A DNA stretch of 64,000 nt from Octopus vulgaris (lineage: Eukaryota), in assembly GCA_951406725.2 (NCBI GenBank), contig OX597831.1, positions 60,760,001-60,824,000 on the forward strand, in the 5' to 3' direction. The notes below the pieces were generated by a model. That model saw nothing but the letters and a program-made list of their open reading frames with translations, did no database searches and was not told the origin of the DNA. Positions 4,531 through 53,170 of the stretch are shown here, in pieces. Position numbers and translations under genes: made by a program. Each line of letters starts with the position of its first letter. Position 1 is the first letter of the stretch.

Positions 4531-5182
4531 ATTCCCCGCCGCCTCAGAGACGCGTAGATATGTTTTGGGGGCTATTTCCGTGGTTTCTTCAGCTGTTGTG
4601 GTGTGGGTGCTGTTTGTATCGAGGCATAACTGCCTTCCTATTGCTGTTGTAGGCAGAAGGCTTTCACCAGGTTATTATGTCCGCATTGATAACATCTTGA
4701 CCTTCTGCTCTCAAATGTAACGTTCAGATTAGTGACATCTAGAAGGTTGATTTGGTCAGGAATTTGTTCCAACAGCTCTTGGTTAATTTGAACCATTATT
4801 TGCAATTCCTGACCAGTCCAGTTGTTTTTTCCTTGTTTCTCTAGTTTGATGAATCTGAACTTATCCTCCAAGTCGAGAAGGACGGCTGCGACAATCCATC
4901 AAGCGTTCATTTCTGGTTGTATCTCCAGTAATTTTATCTTGGCGACCCACCGTCCTAAATATCTTGGAATTAGGACAAGTTCACAGTTTCTCAGCTGGGC
5001 TGTTGAGTACTGTAGCAAATCTGACTTCACTTTTTTCAACTGCTTGCTTTGTGGCAGTTTCTAAATATTTATTTTTTAAATATATAGTTTGTACATTATA
5101 AGACGTATGTTTGTATTGTCTATAATATCTCGAGGTGTGTTTTTCGAAACACATCGTTTGGTTTTTCTTTTTAAAATGTTTC

Positions 5183-29344: not shown

Positions 29345-30737
29345 TTATGGCTTCCCCTTCGTTACCGAGTATGACCATTGCATGAAGCTTAACTGGTACT
29401 GGTGCTGTGATCGGATGTGACATTTTAGCCCAGCTAAAGTTCTACAATGTCTTGTACAAAATTGGCAACTAAAACCTTTACTGGTAATAGCCGGCTGTAG
29501 TTGTAACTGGGCTTCATGTACCTTTGCATGTCGTTTACGTCCCCCTGCCCAATTACACCCTCTTCCACATGCCCGACATATATGATTAGTATGGTGTGCT
29601 ACAACACCACCAGTGGCCAGGTTGTCACTCATCTGTCTCATGTTATGACTACGAAGATGACTCTTGAGTCCAGCTTTACTGAGGCAGGGTCTTGCACAGA
29701 CATTGCATGTCAGCATCAAAGAAAGATCCTTACCTTCTGCAAGTATAACTGCGATGCCCTTCCTGACACCCCTCCTTACTTTCTCATGTGCAAATCGAGA
29801 TTTCTCAAAAGTGGCTGTCACCTCATGCACAATCCTTCTCCATCTGCTACTATCAATAGCTATGCCTTCCCATGTGTCAGCAGAGATGCAAGCATCTCTT
29901 AAGGATGCCTTCAACAAGTCCTTATACTTCCTTTTTGGTTTATGTGGAGGTCGTTCTCCTTTAGCTAACTCTCCATAAAAGAGTTGTTTTGGCATCCTTG
30001 AATCCTTCATCCTGACCAGCTGACCACTCCGTCTGAGCCTTTGCTTTAACACAAGAGCTTCTATAATCTCACACGGAGAGCCTTCCAATATTTCAAGATC
30101 ACTGATGCGGTCCTTCCACTTAATGCTATAGATCCGTCTGAGGCACATCTGATGGAAATGTTCCAGTTGTTTAAGGTGGTATCGATATGTGACCCACGTC
30201 TCGCAGGCATAGGGAAGAGAAGGGAGCACACATGCCTTATACACATTTATCTTTGTCTTTCTGCACATTTCTCGCCGACTCCAGAGGCGCTTTTCTAGCC
30301 TTCCGAAAGCAACACTTGCTTTCCTAATTCTATATGGAATTTCATCATCCAAATTGCCATATCTATTAATAGTGCTTCCCAGGTAGACAAACTGATCAAC
30401 TACATCAAGTCGTTTACCATACACATAGATATTTGGTACACTATACTGCTTACCAGGGGCAGGTTGATGCGTGACAACAATTTTCTTGAGATTGACTGTC
30501 AATCCTAAGGCAATGCATCCATCAGAGAATGCATTCAAAATGTGTTGCATATCAATCTGTGTGGGTGCTACTAGCTCACAATCATCTGCATACAAAAGGT
30601 CTCTTATGATAGAGGTAAATACCTTTGTTTTTGCAGCAAGGCGCCTGATATTATATATGCTGCCAGATGTTCGATAATGGACGTAAACACCGTATCTGCA
30701 GTTTCTGAATGCAATAGAGAACACCATCGCGAAATAT
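29345..30737 (-). mobile_element. 5'-truncated RTE-clade (BovB-like) LINE; RT C-terminal half plus three C2H2-like zinc fingers
   Basis: Open frame with LLYADD, FVYLGS, ASVAFGRL, YACETW and RMPKQLFYGEL..G.R..PKRKYKD; embedded in (TACA)n/(TA)n. Confidence 0.95.
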
Positions 30738-33260
30738 ATGTATACATCCATACAAACATACATACATACATACATACATACACGTATACATAGAGAAAGA
30801 TATTGATAGATATATTTTAAGGCATGAAGTATTCCAGCGTCACCGACATTAATAGGAGGAAAAATGATGAGAGTTAACCACTCACTCCGTCACAAACACG
30901 TTCATATAAGTGACTGTGTTAAACTTGGTGATAATTAAGAATCGTAACTAATTATATCACAGTGAGATGTCAGTTTAGAACGTATGGAAACCAAACATAT
31001 GCTGCAAGGAAACTTACTTGGTCCACGATTTCAAATACCACGAAAGACATAAAACATTCTCTTCTTTGTTTCATATCTTTTAGATGTGAAAAAGATGTTT
31101 CAAATCTTTGAAGTAGTTTTCGATATTGGTATCACCTCCTGTAAACTTAATGTACCTCACCGTTTTTTTTTAAATATTTTTGTTACATCAGGAAATAATT
31201 ATATACTAATACAAAATATATATACTGCATATTACATATCTAGTAGTTAACAGATTTTCCTTCTGGTGCACATCGAACGTTATTTCTTTTATGTTTCAGA
31301 TTTGCTTATGCTGTCACTTTCATATCTGCTCCCCTGGCTGCCCCCCCTCTCTCTCTTCTCTTTCTATGCTAATTACGGAATTTATTTTTGTAGGAAAGCA
31401 TGCGTACTATTGGAACTCTGATGTAGAACATGAAACACAAATATAGCAGTTATAATTAAAGCTCAATATTTATACATACAAAGGATGAAATCCTCTATTT
31501 ATCTACTAAATTATATTCCATAATTCCACAAAGCAGTATACCTTCTACACTGTCGTTACTGCCCTTAAACACTATAATGTACTGATAATGGATTTTTATC
31601 TCGACACATGGCATACATTTTTCGGGAGATCTGTAATCATTTGAATCAAACCCGCTAAATTCATTATATTTAGTGAAAAATTGTAAGTGGAGAGAAATTT
31701 CAACTTTTTCAATCGCAAATATTTATAACTATATTTAACAAAATCCGTTTATCCGTTACTGCTTCTGTCCGCTGTCAGCGTTTAACTGAAGCTACGCGTT
31801 TACAAGTGACATGTTGTATGTTTTTAGTGCAATTTGTTGAAATGGCAGCCAGACTTCCCTTAAACCAGTCTTTCATCAAAGGAAACTACAGTATCGACAG
31901 CAACACCAACAATAAATTAGTAGAACAACAATAACGAGAACAACAACAACAACCATCCAGGAACACTGATGACGCTTAGAACCTATTTGCAACCTAATCA
32001 CTCAATTTGAACCAAATATATTCATCCTAAAATTTCAAACATAAGTGATGATAAATTTGTTATTTTTAACTTTAGGTAATTCATTACATACTTTCGTTCG
32101 GCTGGGCCATCCTTATTGGGTTTATGCTTAATCAATTGAGGGCCACAATGACCATGCCACACATTTAGACGCATTATTATTCAATAGAGTTTTCACTTCT
32201 TTTCCTAATTAGTACAATGAGATTTGAATAAAATGCGAGTGCCAATTGCAGTAGGTTTGTCGACCAAATATTCCCTATCAGTTTCTGACTAGTATTCGCC
32301 CCAACAATGTTATTCACTTTTGTTATAAGAACTGATTAATGTAGCACACGACGGAACGAAACTCAGCCTGCAAACTTGTGAGCTGATTACTGAGGAATAA
32401 CGAAAACGAAATGAGATGTGAACTTTGACAAGGATTCAGTGACAGAGAAAAGAAAGAAAGAAAGAAAGAAAAAGAAAGACAGACAGAAAAATGCGTTGGT
32501 GTTGTAAAGATGGATATGATGGTAATATAAACGATATAAAAGTATGAATAAAGATTGGTTAGGAAGAGTTAGGAAGACACGAAGGTGTATACAGAGAAAA
32601 AGATTCATAAATGAGACATGAGAGAATGTATGAAAGTATATATATATATATATATATATAAGTACACACACACGCGCACATTGATACATATGTATATATG
32701 CGTGTGTTTGTTTATGACCATGTGTTTGTGTGAGTAATTGTGTGTGTGTGTATATATATATATATAGTTTTAATCATACGAAAGGCGAAGACGAAATGTA
32801 TCGAGATGGTGTCCAGCAATCATATATATATTGCATTTGCAAATAACTGATATTCGACAATCAAAATAAATGATTTAAACACGCATACGTAGTTAACTGT
32901 TGACAGATAAGTGTCATTATTTTGCTTATATTGCTTGTTTATTCTGTTGTAAGGAATCGTATCGCATCTGCCTGTTATATTTACTCTCAGTTTCATTTCT
33001 AGTACTGTTATAATTGCTGCTATAAAATAGAGAATGGTAACATATCTTAAACTTGTACTCCACAGGAAAATCGCATATCGTGTATACAATTTATAAAAAG
33101 ACATTAACCCTTCGCTTTACACAAGTAATACATTCTAGGATTGCTTTAACACGGAATGAGTTTCCCCTTTTATTTTCATGTTAAAAAGTAGGAACGCACT
33201 CCAAAGAGTTTCTCTTTGAAAACAGAAAATAAAAACAGCACAATATGCATGAAAATAAAA

Positions 33261-33440
33261 GGCACGAGCTGGCAGAAACGTTAGTACGCCGGGCGGAATG
33301 CGTAGCCGTATTTCATCTGCCGTTACGTTCTGAGTTCAAATTCCGCCGAGGTCGACTTTGCCTTTCATCTTTTCGGGGTCGATTAAATAAGTACCAGTTA
33401 CGCACTGGAGTCGATATATTCAACTTAATCCGTTTTTCTG
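33261..33440 (+). mobile_element. SINE family A, 3'-truncated and fused to a Tx1-like LINE
   Basis: Head and core match up to cttaatccgttt, after which the RT reading frame follows. Confidence 0.9.
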
Positions 33441-35270
33441 GCGCAGGGGGGGGGGTTCTGCTACATTTAGACCAGTCTAAGGCATTTGATAGTGTCGACC
33501 ATCGGTACTTGGCGGCGATCCTCGGGGAGTCTGGCCTGGGCCCGACCTTTCGAGGTTGGATCGCTGCTTTGTATAGCGACATCGAGTCTGTGGTCAAGGT
33601 GAACGGCTTCCTTTCGAAGCCGTTCAGGATCGAGCGTTCAGTTCGTCAGGGGTGTCCCCTGTCTCCGCTTCGATATGCGTTGGCTCTTGAGCCCTTGCTG
33701 CGGAAGTTGGAGGCAATAGGGGGCGCACCGCATGATCTATGGTGTGGAAGAGGAGCTACGGCGTACGCGGATGACATCTCGATCATCGTGGCAGATGAGG
33801 ACCAGCTTCCAGTGGTGGAAGAGGCCAGCAAAAGCTACGAGGCGGTGGGAGGAGCAAAGTTGAACAAGGACAAGTCGGTCGGTTTGCAACTCGGCACCTG
33901 GAGAGGCAAGCCGATGCCGTCCAATAACGTCGTGGGGCGTTGGACGGAAGGTCCTGTTAAGCTGCTCGGAGTCTGGTTCAGGCCAGACATCCTGATAGAG
34001 AAAAAAATGGAGTGAGGTGGCCGGCAAGGTGACCGCTCTAACCCAAACCTAGTCTGGACGGGCGTTATCCCTGCTAGGGAGGGCGGAGGTGGTGCAGATA
34101 TTCATAGCATCAGTAGTCACCTACCGCCTGACCGTGGTGCCTTGCCCCGATTTGTGGCTGAACAATTTGGAGAGAATCCTTTTCCACTTTTTGTGGAAAG
34201 GAGGGAAGCCACTTATAAAGCGCTCTGTCTGCAGCCAGATACCGCTAAATGGGTGGGCTAGGGATGCCTTGGCTGAAGATGCGAAAGGTCGCGTTAAGGT
34301 TGAGGCACCTCTGGCTTTACTTGGATGGAGAACAGGTGTGGTCACCGCACGTTCGGTTCTACCTTCCGCGATTAACGTCCTTAAAGGACATTGGTAATTG
34401 GATCAAGCAGAGACCTAGGCTGGGGGACTGGCAATTGTAGTGCCGTCAGGCACTTCAGCTACTTTCTCGGGTGGGCAATGCCGACAACAGGAGTTCCACC
34501 GCGGATTTCTATAGCGGGTTAGTGGAGGTTAAGTCCGAAGACGCCTTGGGGGAGACCCTGGGCTACGATGAAAATCAGTTGACCAACCTGTTCCGGAGAA
34601 CGTTCGGGCCGGGGTACCTGGATAATTACCAGAAATCCCTGGCCTGGCAGTGTTTCCGTGCGGCGTTACCTGTTCTAGACAAGCTGTCAAGGCACGGAAG
34701 TGCCGTTTCGCCGACATGTCCGCGATATGAGCAGGATAGGGAAACGGTCTTGCACGCATTCGTGGAGTGTCCGGATTTATCGGGACTGATTGCTTTCGCC
34801 GAACAACTATTGTCACTCAGCAGGGAAAGGAAGGCTGGTTTTACCTGCGTAGTAGCCATACTGAAAGAAACAGTATGGAAGACGCGTACAAAAGGTATAG
34901 TGACAGGTACCTTTGTATCCGGCCAGGGAATGGTTAACTTTTTCAGTTACCACCTCGGTAGTAAGATCAGGCTGGAGAAGAGGTGTCTGTCACGAGATAC
35001 GTTTGCGAAAAGATGGAAGTCTGTAGCTTGCAAGCTGGGTATATCTGGCACAAGGTAAGTGTGGCCGGATCAAGAAGTAAAGGTTCTACCCAGATGGCTG
35101 GGATCCGTGCCCTACTGTATAATACCAAATTTTTAAAACTTTATATTGTAAATATTATATATATGTTATTGTAATCACCAACGTTTTAAGCTACTACACC
35201 CTATATGTTTGTCTGTATTTGTATGTCTCCTCTATATAACGCCTTAATGGCGAATCTTTCATGAAATAAA
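33441..35270 (+). mobile_element. 5'-truncated Tx1/L1-type LINE ORF2 (RT plus C-terminal CCHC region) with frameshifts and 3' UTR
   Basis: LDQSKAFDSVDH, RSVRQGCPLSP, AYADDI, GGLGMP and CPRYEQDRETVLHAFVEC; ends gccttaatggc...atgaaataaa. Confidence 0.93.
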
Positions 35271-35283
35271 TTAGCTTGCTAAC

Positions 35284-37595
35284 AGGTTGCTTCTACTTAT
35301 GTGCAAGTCAATGTGGTGCTGGACACCGAAGATGTAAGACGTGTTTTTGAAAGCCGTCTTAAATTGAAGACTTTTGAATACTCAGCCATAAGGTAAGAAT
35401 TTTGGGGGTCTAGTGGGGACCTGTTGTATGTTGCAAATTATTTTTACAAGCAAGAAGTCCTCACTAGACTCTGGCCTACCTGAGACTGAGTGAAAATATT
35501 CTCTTAATTGTGAAAATTATTGGTTTGGTGGGCGTATCCTGCCAAACTTTCGTTTGAAAATAGTGTTAAATTTTGGCCGTAACGGTGAATTGAGAATTCT
35601 TCTTGTGGGAGTATCTCGCAAGAAAATATAAGAATAAGCCACTTGGATTACCCTTTTGGATTACCTTTTGGACCAATTTTTGTGGAAGTTGTGTTCCAGT
35701 TGCGGCGTTCCAGGTTCAACTCAGGCCGGGAGTACGGTAAGGCGAGAAGATTTTTGCTGTGTTTTGCTGTTTATTGACTTTCTTTTGAACTTTATTTAAC
35801 TCCGCTTTTTGTTTTGTTTTTTGTTTATTGCGACTTTCCGTTGATTTCTTCCCTTCTGTTGTGCTTTCTCCTTTTTGGTTTTTCAAAAAATCTATCGAAT
35901 TTTATTTGGACTTTTGAACTTTTTTCTTCTCGCTTTTTAAATTTATTTTGAATATATTAAAAAAAAAACATAGCAATGAAAAATGACAAAATTTTGGAAT
36001 GGGAGATTATACCGCCTAAAAAGTGGTTAAAAGACCGTTAAGATAGGACGGTGGTGTTGAGAACCTACTCCAAGGCACTCGACACCATCGCGCTATTCGA
36101 AAAGACGGCAATTGAAAAGGAGTTGGCAGAGTATTTGCCAACAATTAAATACATTTCCAGGGGTGTCAGATATGCAACGGTGTGGTTGCTATTTGACACC
36201 CCTGAAGAGTCTTGCAAATTTGCTAGTAAAACCCTGGAGGGTAAGGAAATTTTATTTTTGCCCACGTACCATGGAAAGAGACTGACGAAAGCTTGGATTT
36301 GCGGGCTGCCACCAAGGATAAAACCCGAGTGGATAGAGGAGACTATCCGCCGGGGTCTGGGTAGCAGCGGAACTAAGCTTCTTAATGTGAAAGTTCTTCC
36401 TGCGGCTGTTTGGGTTGTTTCAAAAACCAATCTTGACCCTTTGGACCCAATCAGCCAATCTGGTTCTTCCAGAATTTTTGAAAATGGCCGGGTGCAGGTA
36501 CCCGGTGATACTTGAGGGTCGCCCCCCTAGGTGTCATCGGTGCTTGGAGTCCGGCCATATAAAGAAAAACTGTCCCCGGAACAAAATAGGATCCCAGAGA
36601 AGTTAAGTGAAACCCCTGTAGAAGAGGGAATGAAAACGGCCGAGGAAGCGGAGGACTCCTCAAACAGAGGCCGAAAGAGGAAGATGAGCAACAGTGGGTG
36701 ATCAACAAAGGATACTAGGGATGAGGAGGGAAAGGCGAATCTTCCGGCCACGGAGGAGACGCACCCTCCCTCAGTTGAAAAGAAAAAAGAGGAAGAGAAA
36801 CAGGACATTACCGGCAGTCGGTGACATAGTACCGGAATGTCCCGGAACCACGTCGGTTGGGGTTGTGCCACCGACAGGAGAAGAAACACCGTTAGCGGGA
36901 ACTGTGCCATCAAAGAAAGAATTGAATATCCCGCCCCCGAGGAAAAACGATGTATTGATCCTCTTCCATAGAGGCGGAGAGATTGAAAAGGTGATGGAAA
37001 AGCACCATAAAGGAACACCTTTAGCCTTCACACAGGACCCCGAATGGCCTACGCAGGTAGCTGTGGAGGCCGTGGCGTTCGATCTCGTGGCTGAAGGATC
37101 TCAATGAGGATTATAGCTTGGTCCCGGGCGACGCTAACTCAGAACTCGATTACATTCTGAGGGAGGCGTGGTGGATGGCGGAGGGTGCGGGCACAAGTTA
37201 TTTTGAGGACGTGTCATAAATTGTGATACGACTTGAGGGGCCCCGACGTAGCGCTGGCGCATTCCTAAGGGAAGTGTAAGCCAGGTCTGGGAGGAGGGGC
37301 TTTGTGTACTGTATTTATATCATATGTAATTATTGAACTATGTTGTTGTTAGTAATGGACTGTTAAGTCCAAAAATTGAAAATTTCTAAAAGTGGTAAGA
37401 GGTTTAATACCTAGTTTTGTGTTTGTTTTTAAAAGAACAATGTTTTAGAGAAGCAGAAATCAGGGGGGCGCTTTTTGTCTTTTCCCATCCCCATCATCTT
37501 TCTTTCATTATCATTCATTTCATTAATGTCCTCGTCCAGCCCGCAAAGCTAACTTACTCTATGTACTGCCTTTATGGCAAATGTTATGAAATAAA
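35284..37595 (+). mobile_element. ORF1-only (no ORF2) Tx1-like non-autonomous retrotransposon with 12-bp TSD TAGCTTGCTAAC
   Basis: TSD at 35272-35283 and 37597-37608; about 690-bp 5' UTR; ORF1; 3' end gcctttatggc...atgaaataaa. Confidence 0.8.
35976..37107 (+). pseudogene. Disrupted Tx1/L1-type ORF1 (gag-like, CCHC zinc knuckle, acidic/basic tail)
   Basis: ATG 35976 is in frame with track ORF 36051 across one stop (DR*DRTVVLR); a frameshift near 36415 leads to RPPRCHRCLESGHIKKNCP. Confidence 0.8.
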
Positions 37596-37995
37596 GTAGC
37601 TTGCTAACCAACCACATGGTTCCGGGTTCAGTCCCACTGCGTGGCATCTTGGGCAAGTGTCTTCTGCTATAGCCCCGGTCCGACCAATGCCTTGTGAATG
37701 GATTTGGTAGACGGAAACTGAAAGAAGCCTGTCGTATATATGTATATATATATATATATGTGTGTATATGTGTTTGTGTGTCTGTGTTTGTCTCCCTAGC
37801 ATTGCTTGACAACCAATGCTGGTGTGTTTACGTCCCCGTCACCTAGCGGTTCGGCAAAAGAGACAGATAGAATAAGTACTGGGCTTACAAAAGTCCCGGA
37901 GTCGATTTGCTCGACTAAAGGCGGTGCTCCAGCATGGCCGCAGTCAAATGACTGAAACAAGTAAAAGAGTAAAAGAGAGAGAGAGAGAGAGAGAG
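37596..37995 (+). mobile_element. SINE family C lacking its first approximately 24 nt (target of the Tx1-like insertions)
   Basis: Starts at gtagcttgctaaccaaccacatggttccgggttcagtccc; the intact head is visible at 45371. Confidence 0.92.
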
Positions 37996-38312: not shown

Positions 38313-39098
38313 AAATGCCGTTTGTATTCTTTTAACAGTCAAATTTTTATCAATATTATTTGTAATCATTTTTAGAAGTTGGTAGTATTTCCGTATTTTC
38401 ATCTACATACGCTGTCTGCTCTTCTTTTAACATTATTTGTTTGATAAAATATATGCGACACTGGCAACTTAAATACATAATCGGGTATGATATATTTAAA
38501 ACCTACATCATTCACAAGTGTCATAATATTTTCATATATACTTTTGCTTGTGGAAATGTTGTCTGACCTACATTTTTCCAAGCACAATTCTTCATTTCAT
38601 AACCCAGAATCATCTAACCGTAGTTTTACCATCCTTGTCAATTGCGTTCATAGATTATTATTATTTTCAAGTTATTCTCAGAACGTATGTCTTGAAATCG
38701 ACTATCAAAACTTGACCTAATAACTAAATAAGAAACGATATATTTATAGAATAAGTACTGGGCTTACAAAAGTCCCGGAGTCGATTTGCTCGACTAAAGG
38801 CGGTGCTCCAGCATGGCCGCAGTCAAATGACTGAAACATGTAGGTCAGACAACATTTCCACAAGCAAAAGTATATATGAAAATATTATGACACTTGTGAA
38901 TGATGTAGGTTTTAAATATATCATACCCGATTATGTATTTAAGTTGCCAGTGTCGCATATATTTTATCAAACAAATAATGTTAAAAGAAGAGCAGACAGC
39001 GTATGTAGATGAAAATACGGAAATACTACCAACTTCTAAAAATGATTACAAATAATATTGATAAAAATTTGACTGTTAAAAGAATACAAACGGCATTT
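38313..39098. repeat. About 261-bp apparently perfect inverted repeat (38313-38573 / 38838-39098)
   Basis: Identical peptide CRSDNISTSK...RADSVCR in track ORFs on both strands; ends aaatgccg / cggcattt. Confidence 0.93.
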
Positions 39099-45370: not shown

Positions 45371-45526
45371 GATGCAGGAGTGGCTGTGTGGTAAGTAGCT
45401 TGCTTACCAACCACATGGTTTCGGGTAAAGTCCCACTGCGTGGCACCTTGCGATAGTGTCTTCTACTATAGCCTCGGGCCGACCGAAGTGGATTTGGTAG
45501 ACGGAAACTGAAAGAAGCCCGTCGTA

Positions 45527-45565
<39 letters not shown>

Positions 45566-48619: not shown

Positions 48620-48842
48620 ACTACCCACAAGGGGCTAAACACAGAGAGGACAAACAAGGACAGACAAACGGATTAAGTCTTATATATCGACCCCAGTGCG
48701 TAACTGGTACTTAATTTATCAACCCCGAAAGGATGAAAGGCAAAGTCGACCTCGGCGGAATTTGAAATAAGAACGTGACGGCAGATGAAATACGCTTCCG
48801 CATTTCGCCCGGCGTTCTAAAGTTTTTGCCAGCTCGCCGCCT
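48620..48842 (-). mobile_element. SINE family A inserted into the edge of the 19-bp minisatellite
   Basis: Reverse complement of the family A head and core; satellite units on both sides (48591-48615 and from 48843). Confidence 0.9.
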
Positions 48843-51800
48843 TTCGTTCCAATTTCTCGTTTTCGTTCCAGACCCTCACTTTCGTTCAAGACACTCGCTT
48901 TCGTTCCAGAGCCTCGCTTTCGTTCCGAGGACTCGCTTTCGTTCCAAAGCCTCGTTTTCGTTTCAATGCTTCGTTTTCGTTCCAAAGCTTCGTTTTCGTG
49001 CCAAAGCCTCGTTTTCGTTCCAAAGCCTCGTTTTCGTTCCAAAGCCACGTTTTCGATCCAGAACCTCGTTTTCGTTCCAGAGCCTCGTTTTCGTTCTGGA
49101 ACCTCTTTTTTGTTCCGGAGCCTCGCTTTCGTTCCAGACCCTCGCTTTCGTTCCAAAGCCTCGCTTTCGTTCCAAAGCCTCGTTTTCGTTCCAAAGCCTC
49201 GTTTTCGTTCCAAAGCCTCGTTTTCGTTCCAGACCCTTGTTTTCGTTTCAGAGCGTCGTGTTCGTTCCACAGCCTCGTTTTCGTTCCAGAGCGTCGTTTT
49301 TGCTCCAACGTCTCGTTTTCGTTCCAAAGCCTCGCTTTCGTTCCAAAGCCTCGTTTTCGTTCCAGAGCCTCGTTTTCGTTCCAGAGCCTCGTTTTCGTTC
49401 CAGAGCCTCGTATTCTTTCCAGAACCTCGTTTTCGTTCCAGACCCTCGCTTTCGTTCAAGACACTCGCTTTCGTTCCAGAGCCTCGCTTTTGTTCCAAGG
49501 ATTCGTTTTCGTTCCAAAGCTTCGCTTTCGTTCCAATGCCTCGTTTTCGTTCCAAAGCCTCGTTTTCGTTCCAGAATCTCGTATCCGTTCCAGAGCCTCG
49601 TTTTCGTTCCACAGCCTCGTTTTCGTTCCAGGGCCTCGTTTTCGTTCCGGAGCATCGTTTTGTTGCAGAACCACGCTTTCGTTCCAGAGCCTCGTGTTCG
49701 TTCTGCTCCAACGTCTCGTTTTCGTTCCAAATCTTCGCTTTCATTCCAGAGCCTCGTTTTCGTTCCAGATCCTCGTATTCGTTCCAGAGCCCCGTATTCG
49801 TTCCAGAGCCTCGCTTTCGTTCCGCAGCCTCGTTTTCGTTCCAGAGACTCGTTTTCGTTCCAGAGCGTCGTTTTCGCTCCAGAGCCTCGTTTTCGTTTCA
49901 GAACCTCGTATTCGTTCCAGAGCCTCGTTTTCGTTCCACAGCCTCGTTTTCGTTCCAGAGCCTCGTTTTCGTTCCGGAGCCTAGTTTTTGTTGCAGAACC
50001 ACGCTTTCGTTCCAGAGACTCGTTTTCGTTCCACAGCCTCGTTTTCGTTCCAGAGCCTCGTTTTCGTTCCAGAGCGTCGTTTTCGCTCCAGAGCCTCGTT
50101 TTCGTTCCAGAACCTCGTATTCGTTCCAGAGCCTCGTTTTCGTTCCACTGCCTCGTTTACGTTCCAGAGCCTCGTTTTCGTTCCGGAGCCTCGTTTTCGT
50201 TGCAGAACCACGCTTTCGTTCCAGAGCCTCGTTTTCGTTCCAGAGCCTCGTTTTCGTTCCAGAGCCTTGTTTTCGTTTCAGAGCGTCGTGTTCGTTCCAG
50301 AGCCTCGTTTTCGTTCCAGAACCTCGTTTTCGTTCCAGAGCCTCGTTTTCGTTCCAGAGCGTCGGTTTTGCTCCAACGTCTCGTTTTCGTTCCAAAGCCT
50401 CGTTTTCATTCCAGAGCCTCATTTTCGTTCCAGAGCCTCGTATTCGTTCCACAGCCTCGTTTTCGTTCCACAGCCTCGTTTTTGTTCCAGAGCCTCGTTT
50501 TCGTTTCAGAGCCTCGTTTTCGCTCCAGAGCCTCGTTATCGTTCCAGAGCCTTGTTTTCGTTTCAGAGCGTCGTTTTCGTTCCAGAGCCTCGTTTTCGTT
50601 CCAGGGCCTCGTTTTCGTTCCAGAGCCTCGTATTCGTTCAAGAGCCTCGTATTCGTTCCAGAACCTCATTTTCGTTCCACAGCTTCGTTTTCGTTCCAGA
50701 GCCTCGTTTTCGTTCCAGAGCGTCGTTTTCGTTCCAGAGCCTCGTTTTCGTTCCAGAGCGTCGTTTTCGTTCCAAAGCCTCGTTTTCGTTCCAGAGCCTC
50801 GTTTTCGTTCCACAGCCTCGTTTTCGTCTAACGCCTCGTTTTCGTTCCAAAGCCTCGTTTTCGTTTCGAAGCCTCGTTGTCGGTCCGAAGCCTCGTTTTC
50901 GTTCCGAATCTTCGTTTTCTTTCCGAAGCCTCGTTTTCATTCCGAAGCCTCGTTTTCATTCCAGAGCGTCCAACGTCTTGTTTTCATTCCAAAGCCTCGT
51001 TATTGTTCCAAAGCTTCGTTTTCGTCCCAGAGCCTCGTTTTCTTTCCAGACCCTCGTTTTCGTTCCAGAGCCTCGTTTTCGTTCCAGAGCCTCGTATTCG
51101 TTCCAGAACGTCGTTTTTGCTCCAACGTCTCGTTTTCGTTCCAAAGCCTCGTTTTCATTCCAGAGCCTCGTTTTCGTTCCAGAGCCTCGTATTCGTTCCA
51201 GAGCCTCGTTTTCGTTCCACAGCCTCGTTTTCGTTCCAGAGCCTCGTTTTCGTTCCAGAGCGTCGTTTTCGCTCCAGAGCCTCGTTATCGTTCCAGAGCC
51301 TTGTTTTCGTTTCAGAGCGTCGTGTTCGTTCCAGAGCCTCGTTTTCGTTCCAGAGCCTCGTTTTCGTTCCAGAGCCTCGTTTTCGTTCCACAGCTTCGTT
51401 TTCGTTCCAGAGCCTCGTTTTCGTTCCACAGCTTCGTTTTCGTTCCAGAGCCTCCTTTTCGTTCCAGAGCGTCGTTTTCGTTCCAGAGCCTCGTTTTCGT
51501 TCCAGAGCGTCGTTTTCGTTACAAAGCCACGTTTTCGTTCCAGAGCCTCGTTTTCGTTCCACAGCTTCGTTTTCGTTCCACAGCCTCGTTTTCGTTCCAC
51601 AGCCTCGTTTTCGTCTAACGCCTCGTTTTCGTTCCAAAGGCTCGTTTTCTTCCGAAGCCTCGTTTTCATTCCGAAGCCTCGTTTTCGTTCCGAAGCCTCG
51701 TTTTCGTTCCAGAGCGTCGTTTTTGCTCCAACGTCTTGTTTTCGTTCCAAAGCCTCGTTATTGTTCCAAAGCCTCGTTTTCCTCCCAGAGCCTCGGTTTC

Positions 51801-53170
51801 GTTCCTGAACCTCGTTTTCGTTCCAGAGCCTCGCATTCGTTCCAGAGCCTCGTATTCGTTCCAGAGTCTCGTTTTCGTTCCACTGCCTCGTTTTCGTTCC
51901 AGAGTACGTTTCGTTCCAGAGCCTCGTTTTCGTTCCAGAGCCTCGTTTTCGTTCCACAGCCTCGTTTTCGTCTAACGCCTCGTTTTCGTTCCAAAGCCTC
52001 GTTTTTGTTTCGAAGCCTCGTTGTCGGTCCGAAGCCTCGTTTTCGATCCGAATCTTCGTTTTCTTTCCGAAGCCTCGTTTTCATTCCGAAGCCTCGTTTT
52101 CGTTCCGAAGCCTCGTTTTCATTCCAGAGCGTCGTTTTTGCTCCAACGTCTTGTTTTCATTCCAAAGCCTCGTTATTGTTCCAAAGCTTCGTTTTCGTCC
52201 CAGAGCCTCGTTTTCGTTCCAGGGCCTCGTTTTCGTTCCAGAGCCTCGTTTTCTTTCCAGAGCCTCGTATTCGTTCCAGAGCGTCGTTTTTGCTCCAACG
52301 TCTCGTTTTCGTTCCAAAGCCTCGTTTTCATTCCAGAGCCTCGTTTTCGTTCCAGAGCCTCGTTTTCGTTCCAGAGCCTCGTTTTCGTTCCACAGCCTCG
52401 TTTTTGTTCCACAGCCTCGTTTTCGTTCCAGAGCGTCGTTTACGCTCCAGAGCCTCGTTATCGTTCCAGAGCCTTGTTTTCGTTTCAGAGCGTCGTGTTT
52501 GTTCCAGAGCCTCGTTTTCGTTCCAGAGCCTCGTTTTCGTTCCAGAGCCTCGTATTCGTTCAAGAGCCTCGTATTCGTTCCAGAGCCTCGTTTTCGTTCC
52601 CCAGCTTCGTTTTCGTTCCAGAGCGTCGTTTTCGTTCCAGAGCCTCGTTTTCGTTCCAGAGCGTCGTTTTCGTTACAAAGCCTCGTTTTCGTTCCAGAGC
52701 CTCGTTTTCGTTCCACAGCCTCGTTTTCGTTCCAAAGCCTCGTTTTCGTTTCGAAGCCTCGTTGTCGGTCCGAAGCCTCGTTTTCGTTCCGAATCTTCGT
52801 TTTCTTCCGGAGCCTCGTTTTCATTCCGAAGCCTCATTTTCGTTCCGAAGCCTCGTTTTCGTCCCAGAGCGTCGTTTTTGCTCCGACGTCTTGTTTTCGT
52901 TCCAAAGCCTCGTTTTCCTCCCAGAGCCTCGTTTTCGTTCCAGAACCTCGTTTTCGTTCCAGAGCCTCGCATTCGTTCCAGAGCCTCGTATTCGTTCCAG
53001 AGTCTCGTTTTCGTTCCACAGCCTCGTTTTCGTTCCAGAGTACGTTTCGTTCCAGAGCCTCGTTTTCGTTCCAGAGCCTCGTTTTCGTTCCAGAGCGTCG
53101 TTTTCGTTCCAAAGCCTCGTTTTTGTTCCATCGCCTCGTTTTCGTTCCAGAGCCTCGTTTTCGTCCAGAG
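48843..53170. repeat. 19-bp minisatellite (consensus CGTTCCAGAGCCTCGTTTT), about 4.3 kb, roughly 225 units
   Basis: The 19-nt period gives the 19-aa repeat FVPEPRFRSRASFSFQSLV in the ORF track. Confidence 0.98.

Follow-up and report, generated by a model that had tools for sequence, protein, structure and literature searches.

Two Retroelements at a SINE-Head Site

A 64,000-nucleotide stretch of the Octopus vulgaris genome (assembly GCA_951406725.2, contig OX597831.1, positions 60,760,001–60,824,000; hereafter the window, meaning this whole stretch) contains two retroelements in the same orientation, separated by 12 bases (Table 1). A sequence-only reading of this DNA had described them as a Tx1-like pair: element 1, a long interspersed nuclear element (LINE) coding for reverse transcriptase (RT), and element 2, a partner with open reading frame (ORF) 1 only, sharing a 3′ hairpin and stacked at one site in the head of a short interspersed nuclear element (SINE). 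Searching the genome (2.8 Gb, 227 contigs), we found that many ORF1-only families share this SINE-head site with a site-specific LINE of the L1/Tx1 group, and we consider it likely that these families make their own ORF1 protein and borrow the ORF2 of the LINE in trans.

The 3′ motifs occur where the earlier reading had placed them (GCC-TTAAT-GGC…ATGAAATAAA at 35241–35270 and TGCC-TTTAT-GGCA…ATGAAATAAA at 37567–37595), as do both copies of the 12-mer and its one-mismatch version in an intact SINE head. With up to one mismatch allowed, the 12-mer has four matches in the window against 0.34 expected, a count reached by none of 100 shuffles. It had been called a target-site duplication (TSD) around element 2; it is indeed repeated on both sides, but part of it comes from the element's own 5′ end. 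The single base said to precede it is present at both elements; nearly all other copies have G there, so that the T at 35271 is a private change.

Element 1 had been taken to start at 33441, whereas LINE homology runs from ∼33435, where it is fused to the body of a different SINE. A candidate SINE-head stub at 33441 was rejected, the sequence there (GGCGCAGG) being LINE coding sequence. No target-SINE head was found upstream of element 1 in the window or the preceding 10 kb; the head that normally precedes such insertions was probably deleted at this locus. Element 1 is 94–96% identical to full-length LINE copies and has a 60-bp deletion near 34815 relative to most of them. Element 2 has, as described, a zinc-knuckle ORF1 (zf-CCHC, E 5e-4, just under the Pfam cut-off) and no ORF2 before its 3′ untranslated region (UTR). 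In the window copy this ORF1 has an in-frame stop near 36039 and six indels relative to an intact copy.

TABLE 1. Features of the two-element locus and of an empty target site in the window.
Positions	Strand	Feature	Remarks
33262..33434	+	Body of a second, different SINE family, tail absent, joined to the LINE by short microhomology	Cause of joining inferred
33435..35058	+	Element 1: 5′-truncated, frameshifted ORF2 (RT and C-terminal zinc motif) of an autonomous two-ORF LINE	Pfam RVT_1 E 6e-17, zf-RVT E 1e-7
35059..35271	+	Element 1 3′ UTR with terminal 4-bp hairpin CGCC-TTAAT-GGCG (35240–35252), ending ATGAAATAAA(G)	
35272..35283	+	Target 12-mer TAGCTTGCTAAC between the elements: part duplicated target, part the element's own 5′ end	Split inferred from discordant junctions elsewhere
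35284..35969	+	Element 2 5′ UTR; the family has at least three 5′ types that are interchangeable, this being one of them	
35970..37236	+	Element 2 ORF1, broken here: two predicted RRM folds, CCHC knuckle ∼36529–36576, variable linker, conserved C-terminal region	
37237..37596	+	Element 2 3′ UTR with terminal hairpin TGCC-TTTAT-GGCA (37567–37579), ending ATGAAATAAAG; without ORF2 sequence	
37597..37980	+	Rest of the target SINE, opening with the target 12-mer TAGCTTGCTAAC (37597–37608)	
45371..45530	+	Uninterrupted head of the target SINE family (empty site), with 12-mer variant TAGCTTGCTTAC at 45396–45407	

Insertion at the Site Is Specific and Independent

Using a pattern nearly blind to the flank, we found 273 element-2-type 3′ ends. 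Among the 100 listed, 98 run into GTAGCTTGCT(A/T)A or a near variant; one of the two exceptions still enters the SINE body and is an ORF2-bearing copy (C6:73929461) whose final 23 bases are those of element 2, and the other lies off target. After element-1-type ends the sequence is GTAG or TTAG in all 26 cases; four of them diverge later, three of these with a SINE head directly upstream. The 3′ flanks are thus far from random, and the site specificity proposed from the window alone is borne out; for comparison, a published criterion of target specificity is >20% of flanks in one repeat (PMC4494074). Exact element/site junctions number 1,080 in the genome, with none for a reversed-pattern control, and exact empty target-SINE heads number 61,686.

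These insertions are independent, because the SINE head is joined to different internal points of the 5′-truncated LINE (11 distinct loci among 30 locus identifiers scanned) and because locus-specific target variants recur at both ends of the element (L006, L022, L050, and L077). Older groups occupy an older variant of the SINE, AAGCTTGCTTCC, and also start with it. The target SINE may have a tRNA origin. A-box-like and B-box-like motifs are visible in it; its best alignment to 17 genomic tRNAs scored 52 against a shuffled maximum of 47 (54 against 55 for an older copy), and neither Rfam nor ARAGORN gave a match.

The second SINE family, whose body abuts element 1 (33262–33434; intact tail at L075, ∼4850–4985), has a tail of TGTTTGTCCCCTCTATG, a short hairpin and AATAAAG. 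Because this tail closely resembles the 3′ UTR of the LINEs described here, the family may be mobilized by a Tx1-like LINE.

The Autonomous LINE

Element 1 is the 3′ 1.8 kb of a 5.5–5.7 kb two-ORF LINE of the L1/Tx1 group. Full-length copies, placed between the SINE head and the rest of the SINE, have an ORF1 of 478 aa upstream of an ORF2 of 1140 aa comprising endonuclease, RT and zinc motif (Pfam Exo_endo_phos, RVT_1, and zf-RVT). The endonuclease search gave 151 matches (the best 150 of 8,509 candidates scored), many in open frames of 1140–1150 aa, and a helper with intact ORF2 is available in the genome. The closest solved structure to this ORF2 is human L1 ORF2p (226 bits, vs. 80 bits for R2), and the nearest named RTs are from Argonauta (64%) and from fish or cnidarians (37–41%); homologue searches by sequence, in the Atlas, and in the PDB returned no match bearing the Tx1 name. 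Membership in Tx1 is plausible on the type of ORF1 and the site specificity rather than on an RT tree. An ORF1 that combines RNA recognition motifs (RRMs) with a CCHC knuckle is of type I, consistent with Tx1 (PMC5203782); zf-CCHC was matched in three ORF1s, above the Pfam cut-off in one, and a tandem RRM fold is predicted for the ORF1 of element 2. None gave a Pfam match to Transposase_22.

A related LINE family (L115, L116, and L117; 64–67% in ORF2) has a different terminal hairpin. Two of its three copies continue into one common non-SINE flank (AAATCCTTTCGG), which suggests a different target.

An ORF1-Only Family and Its Protein

Element 2 is a broken copy of an ORF1-only family of 2.2–2.35 kb, whose protein has tandem RRMs and the CCHC knuckle. 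Copies (the best 40 of 3,222 candidates scored) show 82–93% identity and lie on many chromosomes. Both ends were resolved in 27 of the 30 best loci, with lengths of 2.0–2.36 kb; selection with a full-length query biases this set toward full-length copies. In 19 of these 27 the order is head, element, body, five have another element before, and three are without a recognizable SINE body after. Intact ORF1 frames of 418–435 aa persist in three copies (L013, L015, and L028).

The structural model of this ORF1 has two RRM-like folds ahead of the knuckle (residues 18–210, predicted local distance difference test [pLDDT] mostly 70–90) and matches tandem-RRM proteins; the C-terminal region is modeled at low confidence (pLDDT <50). 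The two elements had been called otherwise unrelated, but their families' ORF1s are homologous, with 32% identity over 200 aa (E 4e-23). The closest protein, and only close relative, is from Octopus sinensis (74–76% identity), and relatives above 40% identity come from octopus only.

Several further features concern the ends of these elements. A 106-bp non-coding element (L100:1403–1508) combines 5′-terminal with 3′-terminal sequence of the element-2 family and occupies the same target. Five of 16 tested 5′ ends (in L013, L022, L073, and L077) carry a GCGCATGCGC-like motif, which we take to resemble an NRF1 site, and several others open with a short palindrome and a T-run common to the LINE and some ORF1-only groups. 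Two families that diverge elsewhere share one 250-bp 5′ UTR at 96% identity, which indicates promoter swapping. Four contig sets that we guessed to be RNA, covering most of an element-2 copy, were rejected as evidence of expression, as they may be DNA and do not reveal the start, end or strand of a transcript.

Many ORF1-Only Groups, with ORF1 Maintained by Selection

We surveyed the first 30 of the 1,080 junctions over 1.5 kb upstream of each. ORF2 was present at seven, ORF1 led directly into the 3′ UTR at 17, one was the 106-bp internal deletion, and five had no coding match. Clustering gave ∼19 ORF1-bearing groups, many as single copies; the unit set behind it retains some loci in duplicate and a small number of false units (part of group 8, and groups 13 and 18). 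The partner postulated earlier thus exists, but what had been proposed as a pair is a LINE with many ORF1-only groups sharing its target and 3′ hairpin. None of the ORF1-type units matched ORF2, and no sense ORF2 lay within ∼1.5 kb of ORF1 at 30 further ORF1 loci. In 20 stretches around endonuclease matches (62–96% identical to the query), the ORF1s recognizable ahead of ORF2 were only 23–36% identical to that of element 2.

In the ORF1 tree (35 rows, none dropped; the best 138 of 11,953 candidates in the ORF1 search were scored), 16 element-2-type rows, the O. sinensis protein among them, group together with 100/100 support on a long branch. A further four and two rows make up two smaller ORF1-only clades, which likewise fall apart from the 13 autonomous rows; joint support for the latter is only 88/85.

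The ORF1 of ORF1-only elements is under purifying selection, with nonsynonymous to synonymous rate ratios (dN/dS) of ∼0.1–0.3. Between the majority sequences of subfamily a, from 16 copies, and subfamily b, from 15, dN/dS is 0.19 for the core, 0.17 for the C-terminal region and 0.85 for the linker (Fisher p 3e-4 relative to site counts; p 2e-3 for fixed vs. private changes), and comparisons between ORF1-only groups gave 0.08–0.30 at dS of 0.2–3.4, four of them saturated. The earlier reading had asked whether ORF1-only copies form an independent family with dN/dS below 1. Element-2-type ORF1s form a clade apart from the sampled autonomous ORF1s, and the form is no single-copy deletion of a LINE, being multi-copy and nested in a larger selected clade without ORF2.

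The Shared 3′ Hairpin and a Proposed Route of Insertion

Across 32 distinct 3′ ends, 96.9% of the cells of the 4-bp stem are paired. Two pairs show changes on both sides, T-A to C-G, which divides element 2 from element 1, and C-G to T-A; neither the pairing nor the covariation score was reached in 500 shuffles, for sequences that are related and a stem that is short. Stems of this kind are a mark of LINEs whose 3′ recognition is stringent (PMC3747384). The shared target and 3′ end suggest use of ORF2 in trans, perhaps through the hairpin.

We propose that transcription of each element starts at the element's own 5′ end, giving an RNA that would begin with a few target bases. ORF1-only elements would supply their own RNA-packaging ORF1 protein, and the ORF2 protein of the LINE would recognize the common hairpin and AATAAAG end. 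The endonuclease would rely mostly on SINE-head sequence upstream of its cutting site (GGAGTGGCTGTGTGGTAAG^TAGCT), where reverse transcription would be primed, after which the cDNA end would anneal to the duplicated target, yielding many full-length copies with a variable overlap of 6–15 bases. The head-side junction would remain a good target, so that newer elements would stack upstream of older ones.

An RNA that begins with target sequence is likely because, in variant targets, full-length 5′ junctions often switch to GCTAAC (L007, L023, L024, and L028) and because in L027 the site occurs a second time after 15 target bases. At some 5′ ends, among them that of the L076 unit and that at 35284–35294 in the window, an apparent relic of the older target variant directly follows the current one, which suggests that elements gradually take up target bases.

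Recognition of sequence upstream of the cut and growth of arrays on the head side are likely on two observations. In L073 an extra-T junction variant recurs at upstream junctions of different families, and on C9 it recurs along an array of three units, the 3′ site of such arrays retaining another variant; and one C9 insertion sits in a head with sequence other than SINE body downstream. With growth on the head side, element 2 was probably the first to insert at the window locus, in weak agreement with the divergences there (4.1% vs. 3.1%); the TSD around element 2 is no sign that this element was the later arrival.

By exact junctions, stacks occur on chromosome 1 at four of 74 loci (p 0.04), or at five of 74 with L103 (p 0.009), against 1.7% expected. 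At C1:223.69–223.71 Mb (L129, L130, and L200), seven 2-kb ORF1-only units and a LINE occupy one SINE head, and at C9:2.66–2.68 Mb (L201 and L202), three full LINEs lie in tandem at another. Six units of the C1:223.7 Mb array are 99.2–99.9% identical to each other and 97.6–99.2% identical to copies elsewhere, and near-identical arrays of this kind may include local duplication.

Weighing of Alternatives

Several points weigh against the proposed partnership. The hairpin is only 4 bp, at about −6 kcal/mol, and its support amounts to four compensatory cells among related sequences; a control slid by −3 also gave four, but with 57.5% of cells paired. A helper with an element-2-type ORF1 could be missed among the 8,509 endonuclease and 11,953 ORF1 candidates, of which only 150 and 138 were scored. 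The ORF1 tree is unrooted and was built from fragments projected on three queries, and the private changes taken as a neutral control gave dN/dS of 0.74 and 0.49, below the 1 expected for drift, which weakens that control. At the window locus, the 5′ junction is without a SINE head, so the locus itself cannot show the order of insertion, and the hint from age is weak.

The small share of candidates scored leaves room for a view in which the ORF1-only elements are recent internal deletions of an unsampled or lost autonomous LINE, with an ORF1 conserved by inheritance. The ORF2-bearing copy at C6:73929461, ending in the 23 bases of element 2, fits such an origin, as do the first 26–31 5′ bases that some ORF1-only groups share with the LINE. 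We regard it as improbable nonetheless: selection is evident between two close ORF1-only subfamilies (dS 0.11, dN/dS 0.19), the clade spans saturated dS with one ORF1-only layout, and the ORF1s of the sampled autonomous copies are as distant from that of element 2 as given above. Less credible still is hitchhiking, in which SINE head, element and SINE body would be copied as one unit and site specificity would reflect common descent. Although head and body flank nearly every copy and some arrays repeat one family order, 5′-truncated copies are joined to the head through many different internal points, the older variant serves as a target alongside both SINE variants, and locus-specific variants are duplicated at both ends. 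Stacks of the LINE followed by element 2, moreover, carry three different element-2 5′ types at three loci.

A closer competitor, though an unlikely one, retains the partnership but derives the stacks from template jumping or local tandem duplication, and makes ORF1 perhaps only a stabilizer of RNA, the 3′ end alone sufficing for copying. The mutual likeness of the C1:223.7 Mb units, the excess of stacks over chance and the existence of the 106-bp non-coding derivative all speak for it. Duplication, however, cannot produce the extra-T variant common to neighboring junctions of different families in L073, nor does template jumping predict it, and only one non-coding derivative among 30 sampled junctions argues against a dispensable ORF1. 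We favor repeated insertion at the head-side site, with ORF1-only elements that likely depend on the LINE for ORF2.

More tentatively, the ORF1-only elements could be an old, self-standing satellite lineage, older than the present helpers and perhaps than the target, with an ORF1 and C-terminal region specialized to capture ORF2 in trans. Such a lineage would have followed successive helpers and SINE subfamilies by swapping 5′ and 3′ ends and would now outnumber its helper. If so, there would be three tiers: the SINE would be the host site, the LINE its parasite, and the ORF1-only elements would in turn parasitize the LINE.

With its many ORF1-only groups, its intact-ORF2 helper and a single defined site, the octopus system offers replicated natural material for testing why a LINE requires ORF1 in cis and by what means a non-autonomous RNA evades the cis preference of ORF2. 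Co-evolution of endonuclease and target can also be traced, because older elements sit in the older SINE variant, and an endonuclease-RT that keeps to its site with ∼98% fidelity and apparently accepts foreign RNAs in trans is relevant to targeted gene insertion.

Relation to Known Systems

HAL1 elements of mammals rely on poly(A) and are not known to have a fixed insertion site, unlike the octopus elements, which end in the common hairpin without a poly(A) tail and insert at one site. HAL1 is likewise non-autonomous, encodes ORF1p only and has arisen several times, and in guinea pig its ORF1 coding capacity was kept for ∼29–44 Myr, read as ORF1 in cis with ORF2 in trans (PMC5753468, PMC3627910). 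The octopus elements similarly are multi-copy, with ORF1 and without ORF2, and their ORF1 coding is kept by selection, but their partner is a site-specific invertebrate LINE. In the strict sense of a mammalian L1 derivative they are not HAL1, given the RRM and CCHC ORF1, the octopus-only relatives above 40% and the missing Transposase_22 match. Through them, HAL1-like elements would be known beyond mammalian L1, in association with a site-specific LINE of an invertebrate, and a SINE head would join the known targets of L1/Tx1-group LINEs.

In crocodilians, the Tx1-group element Tx1-Mar also targets another transposon, its non-autonomous partner SINEU shares that target (90% for SINEU-3), and tandem insertions sandwich the TSD (Kojima, 2015; PMC4494074). 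Unlike SINEU, which is short and non-coding with a head derived from small nuclear RNA (snRNA), the octopus partners are 1.2–2.4 kb long and encode a selected ORF1, and so are not partners of that type; the target of Tx1-Mar is a Mariner DNA transposon, that of the octopus system a SINE head. Xenopus Tx1, Keno, Kibi, and Koshi likewise insert sequence-specifically into a multicopy repeat or small-RNA gene, the listed targets being Tx1D, U2 snRNA, microsatellites, and DNA or LTR transposons; neither a SINE-head target nor an ORF1-only partner is named in the available part of the same source (PMC4494074). Drosophila R1 forms comparable TSD-separated arrays, for which growth by insertion into the 5′ TSD has been proposed, and some full-length R1 transcripts carry 5′ target sequence that anneals at second-strand synthesis (PMC2718515). 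R1 differs in belonging to the R1 clade and targeting 28S rDNA, and the accessible text of that work describes no ORF1-only partners.

Each part of the octopus system thus has a precedent in HAL1, Tx1-Mar with SINEU or R1 arrays, and the combination appears to be undescribed in the searchable literature. A catalog of 80 L1-Tx1 consensus families had no match for "non-autonomous" in the available supplement (PMC13282606). Our literature search, which included the accessible text of PMC4758252, PMC8967140, and PMC9115989, found no description of the combination, nor of an ORF1-only, site-specific Tx1-like partner or a SINE-head target, with Repbase and the octopus repeat libraries outside its coverage and a prior entry there possible.

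Other Features of the Window

A 514-aa open frame on the minus strand (29345–30889) with a weak RT match and C-terminal zinc-finger matches is probably the end of an unrelated LINE. A satellite of 19-bp units, roughly 200 copies, occupies ∼48720–52700, and a perfect 266-bp inverted repeat lies at 38313–38578 and 38833–39098, with a 254-bp spacer.

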